From the NCBI RefSeq assembly GCF_058153355.1, contig NZ_CM177019.1: a DNA stretch of 64,000 nucleotides. One strand, given 5' to 3'. The position numbers were made by a program, and so were the translations under genes. The notes below the pieces were generated by a model. That model was not told the origin of the DNA and did no database searches. It was given only the letters and a program-made list of their open reading frames with translations. This document shows positions 17,985 through 22,264 of the stretch, piece after piece (position 1 is the first letter of the stretch; each line of letters begins with the position of its first letter).

Positions 17985-19340
17985 TTACCTGTTTTCCCAT
18001 AATTTCAGCATCGCTTTGTGCTCTTCCTTAAGCACAATCCGCGAGCGTCTGGCTCGAATATAACTAATCGCTTCATCAACGGTTTTACAATGTCCGTAAC
18101 ATAACAGCCATGCCGCCACCACCAGCGCACTGCGCGATAATCCCAACGCGCAATGGACCAGAACGCTGCCTTGCTCTTTGCGTAATGTTTCCAGCATCGC
18201 CACGGCCTGTCGGAGCTCCCCCTCTTCCGGAACCACCAGATCCAACATAGGTACACAAAAATAGAGTCGATCTTTTGTCGCGCGTCCGCGAGGGAATTCA
18301 AAGGTGACGTCCAGAACCGCATTCTGTGCCGGAATATGTCGTGGAAACGTCCCTAAATAAACACCCGCAGTAATTTCGCTCACCGGCTCCAGCCGACGAC
18401 AAAACCAGTGCATCGATATCCACATACCGATGCGCCAGGGCAACGTCAGCCAGTAAACGGCAGGCGGGAGTTTCCCCTGACTATCTTTCCCTGTTGTTAT
18501 CGCGCCAAGCCCACCGTACCCACGGCCAATAATGAGTAGCGATAATACTGGCCAACATAACCAGACTGACCACCGTAACTGATTCATCATCATTAGCGTC
18601 ATCAATACTATGCACGAACACGCGCCTACGACATATGGCAGTGCTATTTTGATTCGACGTTGATCAGGTATCTGATAATTCCAGCGACGGTCGACGGGCA
18701 CCATCCAGTCAATCAACATACCTACTGCCAGCCCTGTGATGACATCAATAAAATGATGCTGCCAGGTCGTCAGCGTAGAAATAGCGATGAGTAAAAACCA
18801 TCCGCCACAGACTTTACGCCACCTCACAGCCAGATGCTGACGAAAGTGACGCCAAAGTAGCCAGCAGAGAATAATATGCAGCGAAGGGGACTGGTTATAA
18901 GGCAGATCAAACAGTTCAAGTTGCGAAAATAGCCATCCCGTCACCCCACTCACTTCAGGGCGGATAAAACTAAACTTCAGCGGATAGAGCAAAAAACCGC
19001 AACAGGCCATTACCGTTGCCAGAATAAGCCGGTGGACCAGTCGGCGCTGTTCAAATGTCGAGCGACAAACGAACAGCGAAAATCCATATAAAAGATCCAG
19101 ACTCCAGTAAGGAACAATAGTCCAGGGAAGAAAAGGGATCGCCGTTTCCCAACCGAATACCTGACTGGGGATATCATGGTTGTTAAGATCCTGAAACGCG
19201 GTGAACTGATTAAGAAATCCATATGTGAAGAAGAAAAACGGGGCCAGCAACAATAACCAGCCAACTCCTTGTAGCAATACGCTCCGGCGTTCAGTGGTCA
19301 CGACGCACCGCCATCGAAACCGTAAAAATGCCCCACTCAT
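17985..19340 (-). CDS. ynbD: YnbD, membrane PAP2-like domain plus dual-specificity phosphatase domain (start uncertain)
   Basis: ORF extends to 19373; first ATG is at 19340, an in-frame TTG at 19277 would give about 430 aa; C-terminal HCxxGxxRS phosphatase motif ([10 protein letters not shown]). Confidence 0.8.
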
Positions 19341-20747
19341 CAATCCGTTGTGTGCATTTATCAAATCCGGCATTACGCACGAGCGAATCCATCTCCCCTT
19401 GCGAACGCACGCGCATTACCCACGGTTTACCATCTTTATGACTGGTTAACACCCCGGCAATCAGCTCCAGTTGTGGGTGCCACGGCTGCCCGGTGTAGAT
19501 GAGAATGCCACCCGGTTCGATGGCATTGGCAAGACCAGCGAGGGAGTTTTTTACCTGCTCGTTTTCGGGAAAAAGCTCATACAGGCCAGAGACAATCGCC
19601 AACGTAGGCCGCGGAGTTAACGCGCTGAGTTCTGCCGTATTAAACGCATCGCGTTACTGCCTTGCGGTTGATTTTGATAAACATAATCCAGCGAACTGCC
19701 TGAATCAAAGCCGGTGCTCATTCCGAGATGCAGGCCCGCAGATTGCGCCCCGAACAGTTTCATCGCCTTTCGCATAAAGCGATACGCCAAATCAATCGGC
19801 GATAATGGCACGGGTCCACCAGAAAGGAGCCGCCATCGATCCGCAGATGGTCCTGTGCGGTCTTCATGCTGATAATCAAATTTTTGCGACTTGTTAGCAT
19901 ATAAGCGACTAATAAAGCTTTGCATTTTTTCAAATGCCTGCGCCCTGTTCTCTTCACCCAACGTGTCGTGATAAAAGCCCGGCAGCAGATGCAGCTCTTT
20001 CAGAGGGCAACGTAATCTCTGATAAAAATCAATCTGCGGTTGGCGACGCACCACATAGTCATCGCCCGATATCAGAAGTTGCGTGGGGAGCGTAATCGCC
20101 GCCGCATCGCTAACAATACGTTCAGACGTTTTATAGAGATCGAGCAAGATATTGACGGCAATCACCCGTGTGATCAGCGGATCATTATTGAAACTCGCTA
20201 CCCGTTCCCAATCGTGGGTCAAATAGCGTCCTTTCACATAGGAATTAATAAAAAACAGACCACGCAGACGATGCCATAACGCCAGCGCAGGACGTGCCAG
20301 CGGCACATACAATTTAACCTTAAAGGCCGGAGAAGCCAGCACCAGCCCGCGAATAGCAGGCGCATAATCATGAACCCATGTGGCAACCAGCACTGCGCCG
20401 ACGCTTTGCGCGATCACAACCACCTCTTCCAGCCCGACCTGGCTGTCGCTGGCAGCAAAACGGACAAATTCATCGACATCCTGCACTGAACGCGCAAGAG
20501 ATGGGCTATAACCACGCGGCCCCGAAGTTTGTCCATGCCCTCGGGCATCCCAGGCATAAAAAGCAGTATCTGGCATCGCCAGTTCATCAACGATATGTTG
20601 TAGACGACCAGAATGTTCATGACCGCGATGAAATAAGACGATGACCTTTTTCACCCCTGGCTGTAAAGCGGGCCAGTGCCGATAAAACAACGCTGTATTA
20701 TCACTGGTGGTAAAAAAATGTTCCCCAGGGATGCGTGAATTTTCCAT
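19291..20747 (-). pseudogene. ynbC: ynbC (lysophospholipase-like hydrolase fused to SAM methyltransferase) with a frame break
   Basis: hydrolase ORF 19617..20747 ends just after MTase motif I-like LHLGMSTG; MTase motif II/III (AIVSGLYELF...IEPGGILIY) continues in another frame at 19291..19653. Confidence 0.6.
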
Positions 20748-20762
20748 TTTCTCTATTTTCCT

Positions 20763-21659
20763 TCAGTAACAGCAGTAGCGAATAAAATAAAAAAATACCG
20801 GAGCGGTGAAAATTAATGAGTCAATCCTGTCAAGGAGTCCGCCATGTCCTGGTAATAGTTTTCCACTATCTTTAACACCAATATCTCGTTTGATGGCTGA
20901 CATCACTACATCGCCGCAAAAACCACTAATACCAATTAACAAACCCGCTAATAATGCCTGTAATGTATCTAGCGGTGTCAGCAACGGTCCAATAATCAGT
21001 GACGCAATCATGGTGGTGATTACGCCGCCCATCAGACCTTCCAATGTTTTTCCCGGGCTGACTTTAGGGACCACTTTTCTTCTGCCGCAGGATTTTCCCC
21101 ATAAATACTGTGCAATATCGTTTGACTCGGTTAATGCCAAAAGAAATAACACCAGTAACGCCCCGCCCTGGATATTTGTGGTTGGCAACATTAATAACCA
21201 GGCGGCATGACTCAAGGCGAAAACGGTCATTATCCAGCCCCAAAAAATGGCGCTCACGGTATGCAGAAAACCAGAGGGGTCACCCACTAAAACTCGCCAG
21301 GTGGCTAATATCAGAAACCCAGCCAAAGGTATAAATAACAGAAACAGCTCAAAGCAATTAAAACCGATAAGCAAATAGTTAAGAGGAATACCCCAATATA
21401 ACCAACGCGGAAAATGTACAGATATAAGCGTACAATATTCTTTCAATGCCAGAAAACTTATCAGCGCAAAAAACGTCAACGTCATCCAGCGTGGACCTGA
21501 AATCACCATTGAAAAACAAATGACGATGCCCCACCAGGTACGAATACGTAATGTAACCTCACCCCCTTTTCTCTCCGGTAACCGCCATATCAGAAAACGG
21601 TTTATCAGCGTTGCTAAAATTAACAACGCGAAAAGTGTTGCCAGAGATTTTTCCAGCAT
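20763..21659 (-). CDS. ynbB: YnbB, CDP-diglyceride synthetase (CdsA)-like membrane protein
   Basis: 298-aa polytopic ORF, CTP_transf_1-like; matches YnbB. Confidence 0.85.
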   Translation of the reverse strand: MLEKSLATLFALLILATLINRFLIWRLPERKGGEVTLRIRTWWGIVICFSMVISGPRWMTLTFFALISFLALKEYCTLISVHFPRWLYWGIPLNYLLIGFNCFELFLLFIPLAGFLILATWRVLVGDPSGFLHTVSAIFWGWIMTVFALSHAAWLLMLPTTNIQGGALLVLFLLALTESNDIAQYLWGKSCGRRKVVPKVSPGKTLEGLMGGVITTMIASLIIGPLLTPLDTLQALLAGLLIGISGFCGDVVMSAIKRDIGVKDSGKLLPGHGGLLDRIDSLIFTAPVFFYFIRYCCY

Positions 21660-22264
21660 TATCTTTCAGCACTCATAAAAAGCACACTCCGACAACGATT
21701 AATCGCAGTCCAGAGAAGCAGAATTGAAGCAATGCTCCATAAAAGATTATTCCATTGCATCCACTGTGGATAAATGGCAACGGCCAGCCCCCACAAACCA
21801 AATATTAACGCGCGATCGCTTTTGCCAAATGGACCGGCATAACTGCGAATACCGTTAATCGTCTGCGCGAGTAAACCACAAAACTCAGTCAATATGGTGC
21901 AAAATAACATGAGTATTACGAGTGATGCGTTACTTTCCGGTAAAAATAAAAACGGTAAATAGAGCGCAATATCGGAAATAACATCGCCAGTTTCATTCAA
22001 AATCGCCCCCAGACGTGTTTGCTGATTGCACTCACGCGCCAACATGCCATCCAGCGCATTGAGCGCCATACGGATAAAAAGCACGATGGGCAATAGCAAA
22101 AAGAGGATGGGTCGTGCCACCAACATCAACAGCAATCCGGTAAGAAGAGAAAGCGCCAGTGCAGCAAGAGTGATGTGATTCGCTGTAACGTGGTGCTTAT
22201 AAAGCCAAAACATCGTCGGCCTTAACAGCGACTGAAAGAGCGGTTTTATCTGGTAGAGCGTCAT
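21659..22264 (-). CDS. ynbA: YnbA, CDP-alcohol phosphatidyltransferase family membrane protein
   Basis: ORF to 22270; 201-aa product from MTLYQIKPLF; DG...AR...G...GD motif region (ALDGMLARE...ETGDVISD); stop overlaps ynbB start. Confidence 0.85.
   Translation of the reverse strand: MTLYQIKPLFQSLLRPTMFWLYKHHVTANHITLAALALSLLTGLLLMLVARPILFLLLPIVLFIRMALNALDGMLARECNQQTRLGAILNETGDVISDIALYLPFLFLPESNASLVILMLFCTILTEFCGLLAQTINGIRSYAGPFGKSDRALIFGLWGLAVAIYPQWMQWNNLLWSIASILLLWTAINRCRSVLFMSAER

Follow-up and report, generated by a model that had tools for sequence, protein, structure and literature searches.

The ynbABCD genes of Escherichia coli have the appearance of a small lipid operon, and they raise the question of what, if anything, they make. 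We addressed this question in a stretch of 64,000 nucleotides (the window) from contig NZ_CM177019.1 of assembly GCF_058153355.1, where the operon belongs to an unusual E. coli lineage and ynbC is broken. The operon was annotated long ago, and the role of YnbB as a CdsA paralogue has been published. To our knowledge, no product of ynbABCD has ever been detected. Our main reading, to which we assign a probability of about 0.6, is that the operon encodes a CDP-diacylglycerol-dependent side pathway that makes or remodels a minor lipid, and that in E. coli this pathway is conditionally expressed, can be dispensed with and has decayed repeatedly.

Organisation of the operon and the lesion in ynbC

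An earlier note, made from the sequence alone, had described four tightly packed, partly overlapping genes at positions 17985-22264, which proved exact to the base (Table 1). The stop codon of ynbA and the start codon of ynbB share the sequence TAATG, ynbB and ynbC are 15 nt apart, and in intact alleles ynbC shares 11 nt with ynbD. The length of YnbD is based on the RefSeq start; its longest open reading frame extends to 19373. The window copies of ynbA, ynbB and ynbD contained no further frameshift or stop codon.

Table 1. Features of the ynb locus in the window (positions in the 64,000-nucleotide stretch).
Feature	Position	Strand	Basis
ynbA: CDP-alcohol phosphatidyltransferase-like membrane protein, 201 aa, intact	21659..22264	-	Pfam PF01066
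ynbB: CdsA paralogue (phosphatidate cytidylyltransferase family), 298 aa, intact	20763..21659	-	Pfam PF01148
ynbC, whole, broken	19291..20747	-	
ynbC 5' fragment, 376 aa: complete alpha/beta hydrolase domain, first ~90 residues of the methyltransferase region and 11-residue frameshifted tail	19617..20747	-	Pfam
Junction of the 301-bp ynbC deletion	19652..19653	-	alignment with NZ_CP169399
ynbC 3' remnant, out of frame (residual ORF 19291-19602, 103 aa)	19291..19652	-	protein identity, Pfam
ynbD: eight-helix PAP2-type membrane domain and C-terminal dual-specificity phosphatase domain, 438 aa, ORF intact	17985..19301	-	
ydbD-ynbA intergenic region with ynbA promoter and regulatory region	22265..22434	-	near-identity to K-12 proximal to the ynbA ATG
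Hairpin, probable shared terminator, in the ynbD/azoR gap	17935..17984	.	fold energy

Over the 140 bp proximal to the ynbA ATG, the window differs from K-12 by one nucleotide. A consensus promoter scan of the ydbD-ynbA intergenic region found nothing above chance; the ynbA promoter depends on BglJ, an activator that is normally silent (PMC3950696). The convergent genes ynbD and azoR are separated by 53 nt, which contain a hairpin with an 11-bp perfect stem (GATGTGGACTG / CAGTCCACATC) and a folding energy of -28.8 kcal/mol (z = -5.4 versus shuffled sequences), which is probably the shared terminator of both genes. A simple terminator scan missed this hairpin, because no U-run follows on the ynbD strand. 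Internal terminators were not in excess within ynbABCD, and the only strong hairpin was the one after ynbD. Together with the codon overlaps, short spacing and conserved gene order, these features indirectly support organisation as an operon. Published work treats ynbC as an upstream gene of an operon (PMC2435150) and the ynb genes as an operon (PMC3950696).

The suspicion that a frame break in ynbC might cripple the operon was borne out. What breaks the frame is the loss of 301 bp between window positions 19653 and 19652, where positions 3654-3954 of the reference locus L001 (E. coli NZ_CP169399) are missing, and the microhomology at the junction is only 2 bp (GC). Residues ~366-465 of YnbC are lost, and with them SAM motif I (VVDIAAGHGRY) and the acidic LRDYS motif; the deletion length is not a multiple of three, which shifts the frame. 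The truncated product retains 365 native residues, and its match to the Methyltransf_20 profile is confined to positions 1-93; the 3' remnant corresponds to profile positions 210-309 and its protein sequence is 100% identical to residues 467-585 of intact YnbC. The C-terminal region did not present the combination of Rossmann-type fold, glycine-rich motif I and acidic motif II that marks class I SAM-dependent methyltransferases. Since the SAM-binding core is deleted and the frame shifted, the methyltransferase step is lost. Furthermore, translation in the window ynbC ends 316 nt ahead of the ynbD start, so that coupling would be lost and expression of YnbD probably reduced by polarity.

None of the 5,426 complete E. 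coli genomes carried the 301-bp deletion. In the assembly collection it was limited to three contigs, of which one matched the window at 100% identity along 7,131 bp. The identical truncated YnbC and locus recurred in three assemblies from independent read sets; hence, the deletion is real and not an assembly artefact. It is private to a single clone and not characteristic of the species.

Domains and candidate activities of the four proteins

Pfam confirmed the domains that had been proposed from the sequence (CDP-OH_P_transf, CTP_transf_1, Hydrolase_4 plus Methyltransf_20, and DSPc), with PAP2_3 and PAP2 below their cut-offs. YnbA is a member of PF01066 (37.8 bits, gathering cut-off 22; profile positions 3-148 of 152 covered), and among solved structures it is closest to mycobacterial PIP synthase (6h53/6h5a, E = 8e-8). 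The nearest NCBIfam equivalog models were archaetidylinositol-phosphate synthase (73.7 bits, cut-off 180), PIP synthase (47.2, cut-off 170) and PgsA (29.5, cut-off 109). YnbA scored far under all three cut-offs, which sets it apart from the pathways that pair PIP or archaetidylinositol-phosphate synthase with a phosphatase (mycobacteria, archaea) or PgsA with PGP phosphatase. Moreover, of the four aspartates in the signature D1xxD2GxxARx8GxxxD3xxxD4, YnbA has asparagine at both D1 and D3 (N69xxD72GxxARx8G86xxxN90xxxD94, with R77 within), where the aligned PIP synthase has aspartate. Neither asparagine varied among the YnbA homologues encoded in the 80 species loci described below, and YnbA had no substitutions specific to the window copy. 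The D1 and D3 aspartates are required for activity in canonical family members, according to the mutagenesis literature, so that the active site of YnbA may perform different chemistry or none. No enzyme assay of YnbA (CMP-releasing transfer to an alcohol) was found in the published literature. The same known pathways have no counterpart of the lipase-methyltransferase fusion YnbC, and differ from YnbD, whose phosphatase shares one polypeptide with a PAP2-type membrane domain.

YnbB matched PF01148 with 236.7 bits and Thermotoga CdsA (4q2g) with E = 5.6e-23; the segment SAIKRDIGVKDSGKLLPGHGGLLDRIDS aligns to 4q2g, and the motif KRxxGVKDSGKxLPGHGGxLDRID is conserved. The Pfam match and the C-terminal signature S-x-x-KR-x4-KD-x5-PGHGG-x-DR-x-D place YnbB in the CdsA family. 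It is not an orthologue of housekeeping CdsA by the NCBIfam equivalog PRK11624, against which it reached 111.4 bits versus 385, over the C-terminal half only. Experiments have shown that this CdsA paralogue supports formation of the glycolipid MPIase, with GlcNAc-PP-DAG as the intermediate (PMC6362211, PMC11413397, PMC11448367). Hence, the earlier note's remark that no product is known does not hold for YnbB; it does hold for YnbA, YnbC and YnbD, to which the literature searched assigns no function. YnbB is measurably active in vivo, but is unable to replace CdsA in bulk phospholipid synthesis (PMC6362211). In its CdsA signature and its support of MPIase synthesis, YnbB resembles the CdsA/MPIase system of E. 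coli (PMC6362211). In contrast, the rest of the ynb cluster occurs in taxa far beyond Enterobacterales, often without YnbB.

The N-terminal part of YnbC (residues 32-266) matched Hydrolase_4 with 224.8 bits in the window copy, where this domain is intact, and resembled the monoglyceride lipases of M. tuberculosis and human (E = 1e-15). Homologues invariably have Ser115, Asp230 and His260, as well as H40-R-G-H-E-H-S-G-R48. With this triad and the HGxxEHxxR oxyanion-region motif, YnbC belongs to the monoacylglycerol lipase/lysophospholipase family, which includes human MGLL and M. tuberculosis Rv0183. It differs from that family in having AQSVG instead of the GxSxG nucleophile elbow, and in the fusion of the lipase to a class I SAM methyltransferase of the uncharacterised Pfam family PF12147; fold comparison of the methyltransferase gave no clue to its substrate. 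A PlsC/Aas-type acyltransferase gene adjoins ynbC in most other species, reminiscent of the deacylation-reacylation cycle with Aas and PlsC, but the E. coli cluster is without this partner.

YnbD had been described as a PAP2-like domain joined to a dual-specificity phosphatase. The phosphatase part stands, as indicated by DSPc (93 bits), an HCx5R(S/T) P-loop and the general-acid Asp, although this domain is no nearer PTPMT1 than protein DUSPs. The membrane domain has the six-helix PAP2 core fold, but its likeness to head-group transferases is at least as great as its likeness to phosphatases, and its fold is closest to sphingomyelin/IPC synthases. Scores for PAP2_3 (21.3 bits) and PAP2 (16.9 bits) were under the Pfam gathering cut-offs of ~27. 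Measured against the standard motifs C1 (KxxxxxxRP), C2 (PSGH) and C3 (SRxxxxxHxxxD), YnbD has invariant P139-S-L-H142 at C2 and H182-H183-x-x-D186 at C3, and only R114-P115 at C1. The low PAP2 scores, the absence of the C1 Lys and the fusion to a cytoplasmic dual-specificity phosphatase domain distinguish YnbD from characterised members of the LPP superfamily (sphingomyelin synthase-related protein, Aur1, PgpB, LpxE, LpxT). Arginine-rich loops (~75-91, 151-163 and 201-218) alternate with the motif-bearing loops; from hydropathy, the positive-inside rule and the predicted model, the catalytic His/His/Asp is predicted to lie on the periplasmic side. In published complementation tests, ynbD made up neither for loss of C55-PP phosphatases nor for loss of PGP phosphatases (PMC7413402), the activities by which the E. 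coli PAP2 lipid phosphatases PgpB, YbjG and LpxT are recognised; this result speaks against a plain PG branch.

A conserved core and the proposed pathway

We compared 80 species loci anchored on YnbC. They contained YnbA in 79 cases, YnbD in 73, the acyltransferase in 62, YnbB in 60 and a small membrane protein in 52, and all six genes occurred together in 46 loci. Neither a seventh conserved neighbour nor a conserved gene for making a special acceptor was found in these loci. YnbA, YnbC and YnbD were adjacent in 73 of the 80 loci, spanning several classes, and this core was kept in Pseudomonas, Cupriavidus, Rhodocyclales, Bradyrhizobium and an Acidobacteria MAG. Proteus, Providencia, Morganella and Xenorhabdus retain the core without ynbB, and YnbB is therefore accessory rather than the centre of the cluster. 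On one metagenomic contig, YnbA (45% identity) and YnbC are parts of a single protein of 807 aa, and genes for YnbD, an acyltransferase and a CdsA-like protein come after it; a distant YnbC relative adjoins patatin, CdsA-like and PAP2_3 genes. The form with ynbABCD alone, devoid of acyltransferase and small membrane protein, was confined to Escherichia, and E. whittamii additionally lacks ynbD. Judged by gene content, YnbA-YnbC-YnbD is a conserved core in Proteobacteria, usually accompanied by a PlsC-type acyltransferase, a CdsA-like gene and a small membrane protein, and ynbABCD is a four-gene, Escherichia-specific reduction of this six-gene cluster. The synteny (73-79 of 80 loci) and the YnbA-YnbC fusion thus favour the lipid head-group or remodelling pathway that the earlier note envisaged, but its four genes are not the whole system.

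The proposed pathway would form a self-contained branch off the CDP-diacylglycerol route to phospholipids. A PlsC/Aas-type acyltransferase, where present, would make phosphatidate or re-acylate a lyso-lipid. YnbB converts phosphatidate to CDP-diacylglycerol, as the literature has shown. At the cytoplasmic face, YnbA would pass the phosphatidyl group on to an acceptor; as the synthases closest to YnbA use inositol-phosphate and glycerol-phosphate, the likeliest acceptor is a phosphorylated polyol or a sugar phosphate. The cytoplasmic phosphatase domain of YnbD could strip the extra phosphate, as the dual-specificity PGP phosphatase PTPMT1 does on PGP in mitochondria. The soluble YnbC would deacylate and/or methylate the lipid, and the membrane domain of YnbD would hydrolyse a lipid (pyro)phosphate or pass the head group to another acceptor.

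Alternative explanations and implications

An operon dedicated to MPIase would use YnbB to make CDP-DAG and YnbA, instead of CdsA or YnbB, to join phosphatidyl to GlcNAc-1-phosphate, yielding GlcNAc-PP-DAG; YnbC and YnbD would trim or recycle the anchor, for example by periplasmic hydrolysis of diacylglycerol pyrophosphate. PAP2 family enzymes often hydrolyse lipid pyrophosphates, ynbA is translationally coupled to ynbB, and the Asn-for-Asp exchange makes the YnbA active site less negative and might thereby accommodate an anionic phosphate as nucleophile. The enzymes of the later MPIase steps have yet to be identified (PMC11413397), and overproduction of YnbB raises MPIase about three-fold. 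However, MPIase is essential, yet deletion of ynbB leaves the MPIase level and growth normal, so that YnbB contributes to this pathway but is not required (PMC6362211), and the ynbD knockout is viable (PMC7413402). Moreover, many E. coli genomes lack the operon (see below), and Proteus and the three other genera named above dispense with ynbB. The core also occurs in Pseudomonas, Cupriavidus, Rhodocyclales, Bradyrhizobium and the Acidobacteria MAG, which are not known to produce the enterobacterial-common-antigen-type trisaccharide of MPIase. This wide distribution disfavours a dedicated MPIase role, which we consider quite improbable.

The Escherichia operon could also be without physiological product, a silent leftover after loss of the acyltransferase and the small membrane protein, with the deletion in the window as neutral decay. 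Its reduced form, unique to Escherichia, and the ~4% divergence of ynb alleles are in line with this, as are the absence of growth phenotypes in knockouts (PMC6362211, PMC7413402) and the dependence on BglJ (PMC3950696). The comparison of operon integrity that the earlier note had called for showed that 804 of the 5,426 complete E. coli genomes (~15%) are without the operon and ~340 (~6%) have partial copies, among them an independent 1.6-kb deletion. Conversely, 79% retain it at full length, dN/dS between window and K-12 alleles is 0.13-0.30 in all four genes and therefore indicates continued purifying selection, the catalytic residues in the window are intact apart from the ynbC lesion, and YnbB is active in vivo. 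Hence, we regard a mere relic as unlikely. Highly implausible is a chance neighbourhood of four genes with unrelated housekeeping roles, which the earlier note had named as grounds for rejecting its proposal, or a sequencing or assembly error in ynbC. Although the simple promoter and terminator scans were uninformative, such explanations are contradicted by the adjacency of the core across classes, the fusion protein, the overlapping start and stop codons, the recurrence of the deletion in independently assembled read sets and the placement of ynbC in an operon (PMC2435150).

The reading that we prefer remains the dispensable CDP-diacylglycerol-dependent side pathway. New here are the conserved YnbA-YnbC-YnbD core, the invariant non-canonical motif of YnbA and the membrane fold of YnbD resembling sphingomyelin/IPC synthases. 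More tentatively, and with considerable doubt, we suggest that the core and its partners might make a phospholipid or glycophospholipid undescribed in Proteobacteria. YnbA, with its invariant Asn-for-Asp active site, would then transfer phosphatidyl in a non-canonical way, for instance to a phosphate, which would yield a pyrophosphate-linked lipid such as GlcNAc-PP-DAG, and the periplasmic, sphingomyelin-synthase-like domain of YnbD would pass the head group of this lipid to another acceptor in the envelope.

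Operon structure and the ynbC deletion

The ynbABCD locus is a known, annotated operon, with azoR, hrpA and ydbD as its flanking genes. The Pfam matches agreed with the four domain assignments of the earlier note, although those of YnbD to PAP2_3/PAP2 were weak and below threshold. The tight packing described there was also found. The ynbA stop and the ynbB start share the sequence TAATG, 15 bases separate ynbB from ynbC, and ynbC and ynbD overlap by 11 bases in intact alleles. A strong hairpin (-28.8 kcal/mol, z -5.4) occupies the 53-nt gap between ynbD and azoR. No Rfam family matched across positions 16800-23000, even at E 0.1, and promoter and terminator scans of the region gave counts at or below chance, which were not taken as evidence.

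Coordinates of the ynb operon and of other features in the window and in comparison loci
Feature	Position	Strand	Description
ynbA	window 21659-22264	-	201 aa; ORF listing and annotated E. coli genomes; Pfam CDP-OH_P_transf
ynbB	window 20763-21659	-	298 aa; ORF listing and annotated E. coli genomes; Pfam CTP_transf_1
ynbC (broken)	window 19291-20747	-	Pfam Hydrolase_4 and Methyltransf_20
ynbD	window 17985-19301	-	438 aa; Pfam DSPc, weak sub-threshold PAP2_3/PAP2
azoR	window 17326-17931	convergent to ynbD	flanking gene
Mismatch cluster	window 18000-18250		ynbD 3' end
Mismatch cluster	window 22000-22500		ynbA 5' end/upstream
Autotransporter-like ORF	window 25873-31371 (within 25873-32531)		uninterrupted, 1,832 aa
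uspF-ttcA interval	window 43036-45360		~2.2 kb absent from nearest complete E. coli genomes
ABC-3-type metal permease	window 43124-43492		ORF fragment
Tyrosine integrase	window 45001-45309		C-terminal fragment, abuts ttcA
Small membrane protein	L005 11031-11432		example after ynbD
Small membrane protein	L066 11031-11474		example after ynbD
Decayed operon	L090 (E. coli 2017.17.03CC) 2807-4471		independent decay; also NZ_CP024134

The frame break in ynbC noticed earlier proved genuine. Alignment with the closest complete genome revealed a single 301-bp deletion between window positions 19653 and 19652, which takes out YnbC residues ~366-465, including the glycine-rich SAM motif I (VVDIAAGHGRY) and the next acidic motif, both invariant among homologues. 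The deleted length cannot be divided by three, and the frame is shifted as a result. The truncated product consists of 365 native and 11 foreign residues and contains the complete lipase-type hydrolase domain (Pfam residues 32-266), while the last 119 codons persist only as an out-of-frame remnant. None of 5,426 complete E. coli genomes gave a single-piece match to a 70-nt probe over the deletion junction, and the exact truncated YnbC occurred on only three contigs of a large public assembly collection, of which one was 100% identical to the window across 7,131 bp and another 99.9%. Hence, the lesion is real and confined to one rare clone.

The suspicion that the operon is crippled was right, and the methyltransferase step is certainly lost in the present strain. 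Beyond this deletion the operon carries nothing disabling. Window-specific substitutions are absent from YnbA and YnbB (W140 of YnbB is a conserved residue), and five of the six window-specific changes in YnbD are at non-conserved C-terminal positions. Translation of the truncated ynbC stops 316 nt short of the start of ynbD, whereas the ynbC stop and the ynbD start normally overlap; we infer from this spacing that ynbD expression is likely reduced in this strain.

A best E. coli identity of only 98.5% raised the suspicion of a Shigella-type pseudogene. This was rejected, as the whole window is ~99% identical to ordinary E. coli, and the truncated YnbC would be expected on thousands of contigs rather than three in a Shigella lineage. 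Since the window is ~98.8-99.0% identical to the nearest complete E. coli genomes, its lineage is an ordinary but poorly sampled one. The operon alleles of this lineage and K-12 differ by ~4% at the DNA level, which exceeds the divergence usually seen among core genes of E. coli. Mismatches to the nearest genome were bunched at two sites (see table), which suggests recombination patches.

Elsewhere in the window, the uspF-ttcA interval resembles the remains of a degraded prophage or island at a Rac-type attachment site. The 1,832-aa ORF, whose counterpart in the nearest genomes is annotated as an autotransporter or BigA-YdbA-type protein, directly adjoins ydbL-ynbE-ydbH. The feaRB-tynA-paa cluster, which we take to lie between these two on the K-12 map, is absent from the window.

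Distribution and gene order of the cluster

Scanning one genome per species returned >550 YnbC relatives, of which the best 80 loci were analysed. They came from Enterobacterales, Pseudomonas, Cupriavidus, Rhodocyclales, Neisseriaceae, Bradyrhizobium, Motilimonas and an Acidobacteria MAG. Genes were counted by tblastn with the E. coli proteins and two extra proteins. Among these best 80 of the >550 loci, YnbA was found in 79, YnbD in 73, a PlsC/Aas-type acyltransferase in 62, YnbB in 60 and a ~135-aa membrane protein in 52; YnbA, YnbC and YnbD occurred together in 73, and all six genes in 46. YnbA-YnbC-YnbD is the invariant core. YnbB and the acyltransferase are an accessory pair, from which phosphatidate and CDP-diacylglycerol would come. 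Clustering of all ORFs from the 80 loci yielded no further conserved neighbour beyond the six families; a conserved acceptor-making gene, for instance one for an inositol-phosphate synthase, was likewise absent from the surroundings of the cluster.

With A to D for YnbA to YnbD, AT for the acyltransferase and S for the small membrane protein, gene order was A-B-AT-C-D-S in Citrobacter, Hafnia, Serratia and Yersinia, A-C-D-S (without B or AT) in Proteus, Providencia, Morganella and Xenorhabdus, and A-C-D-(S)-AT-B in Pseudomonas and beta-proteobacteria. Because A-B-C-D without AT and S occurred, among the best 80 of the >550 loci, in Escherichia only, and no copy of either gene was found in the window, the Escherichia operon is a reduced derivative. 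Another reduced form was seen in Escherichia whittamii (L004) and Phytobacter massiliensis (L015), where ynbA-ynbB-ynbC is present and an adjacent ynbD is undetectable.

The small protein after ynbD, predicted to be a membrane protein of ~135-147 aa, is missing in Escherichia; the table lists two examples, and 50 other loci carry it. It had no Pfam or NCBIfam match. The homology of these proteins is tentative, since the Citrobacter and Pseudomonas versions share no detectable pairwise similarity and are joined into one family only via intermediates.

One metagenomic protein of 807 aa combines a YnbA homologue (45% identity, E 5e-47) with a YnbC homologue, and the genes that follow encode YnbD, an acyltransferase and a CdsA-like protein. 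A distant YnbC relative lies beside a patatin gene, a short-chain dehydrogenase gene, a CdsA-like gene and a PAP2_3 gene. Both arrangements point to a functional link among the genes. That the ynb genes have unrelated roles, one of the findings by which the earlier note would have been refuted, is contradicted by this fusion and by the joint occurrence of the three core genes.

Protein features and a possible lipid pathway

Phospholipid synthesis in E. coli is regarded as essentially solved. Among the products of the ynbABCD operon are nonetheless an additional CDP-diacylglycerol synthase and an additional CDP-alcohol transferase, the second of each kind, as well as a lipase-methyltransferase and a fourth PAP2 protein; a role has been published for just one of the four. 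The relevant sources (PMC6362211; reviews PMC11413397, PMC11448367; bioRxiv 10.64898/2026.06.05.730299) describe YnbB as a CdsA paralogue whose overproduction increases the glycolipid MPIase about three-fold. Deletion of ynbB alone left both growth and MPIase level unchanged, and YnbB is seen there as a back-up that makes CDP-diacylglycerol and GlcNAc-PP-DAG, the first MPIase intermediate. Cold induces ynbB along with cdsA (PMC11413397). The BglJ-RcsB heterodimer activates the ynbA promoter (PMC3950696); the 140 bp upstream of the ynbA ATG in the window differ from K-12 by one base. YnbD has been identified as the fourth PAP2 protein of E. coli, with its function left unassigned, and failed to complement strains lacking C55-PP or PGP phosphatases (PMC7413402). 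A transposon insertion in ynbC led one strain background to accumulate polyphosphate, an effect that was not seen in the Keio background (PMC2435150). Literature searches on what YnbA, YnbC and YnbD do biochemically, on PF12147 and on the gene combination gave nothing relevant. Hence, the earlier view that no product is known stands for YnbA, YnbC, YnbD and the operon as a whole, but not for YnbB.

The best solved relative of YnbA was the mycobacterial phosphatidylinositol-phosphate synthase (E 8e-8), and its best NCBIfam models, those for archaetidylinositol-phosphate synthase, PIP synthase and PgsA, scored far below their cut-offs. With each of these three enzymes a phosphorylated polyol receives a phosphatidyl (or archaetidyl) group, and a phosphatase has to act on the product; the phosphatase encoded in the cluster agrees with this. 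YnbA fails the defining family motif: in the signature D1xxD2GxxARx8GxxxD3xxxD4, asparagine stands in place of D1 and D3, both in E. coli and in the homologues of the 80 loci. This strict conservation and the dN/dS of 0.15 of ynbA point to a functional variant rather than decay, and the chemistry of YnbA may differ from that of its family.

The N-terminal domain of YnbC is a member of the monoglyceride-lipase/lysophospholipase family (E 1e-15), and the Ser115-Asp230-His260 triad in it is invariant. Its C-terminal domain gave a confident class I methyltransferase model (pLDDT 91.4), the structural neighbours of which offered no substrate hint. The YnbD model (pLDDT 91.8) has eight membrane helices, in a fold like that of sphingomyelin synthase, and a C-terminal phosphatase domain. 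The membrane domain retains the PAP2 catalytic His, His and Asp. Because arginine-rich loops alternate with the motif-bearing loops, the positive-inside rule predicts a periplasmic PAP2 site and a cytoplasmic phosphatase domain.

We read the cluster as a self-contained side branch of the CDP-diacylglycerol pathway, with a probability of about 0.6; any single step is much less well supported than this general reading. CDP-diacylglycerol would be supplied by the acyltransferase, absent in E. coli, and by YnbB, for which this activity has been shown in the literature. YnbA would then move the phosphatidyl group onto a common phosphorylated acceptor, and the cytoplasmic domain of YnbD would dephosphorylate the product. 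YnbC might deacylate and/or methylate the resulting lipid, and the periplasmic PAP2-type domain of YnbD might hydrolyse a lipid (pyro)phosphate or hand the head group on. The ynb system is best seen as a CDP-alcohol-transferase/phosphatase lipid pathway that includes additional, unusual enzymes and a non-canonical transferase motif. Synteny, the fusion protein and the enzyme families favour the head-group or remodelling pathway first proposed for these genes, but the four genes are only part of a six-gene cluster.

Operon decay, alternative explanations and implications

In E. coli the operon decays repeatedly, by different routes. Comparative genomics of operon integrity, as had been suggested earlier, showed that 79% of the 5,426 complete genomes keep the full-length operon, while 804 (about 15%) lack it and about 340 have a partial operon. 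The ynbC deletion is an ordinary private mutation, one example of this recurrent decay and of little consequence in itself. Other E. coli lineages carry decayed forms of it (see table): an independent deletion of ~1.6 kb fused the ynbA 5' end to ynbC and removed ynbB, and another genome retains just 292 bp of ynbD.

Such decay, together with the gene losses, would fit an operon that is merely a relic in Escherichia, but we consider this unlikely given the dN/dS of 0.13-0.30 in all four genes and the high proportion of full-length operons. Dedication of the operon to MPIase would agree with the role of YnbB and with the later MPIase enzymes being unknown. It is nonetheless improbable, as the ynb genes are dispensable (PMC6362211), many E. 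coli genomes do without them, and numerous non-enteric taxa carry the A-C-D core, often with no YnbB beside it. Chance neighbourhood and a sequencing artefact are both effectively excluded, by synteny and by the independent contigs with the same deletion, respectively.

A cluster of six genes, common among Proteobacteria, is thus present in E. coli in truncated form, which may explain its silent knockouts. The complete clusters of Citrobacter, Serratia, Yersinia and Pseudomonas are better material for lipidomics, and mutagenesis has concrete, testable targets in the invariant Asn/Asn active site of YnbA and in the YnbD fold, which is like that of sphingomyelin synthase. The strain-specific lesion adds little, but the comparative picture makes the question of the ynbABCD product more directly testable. 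Should a link with MPIase exist, the system would be relevant to a factor that is essential for inserting membrane proteins.
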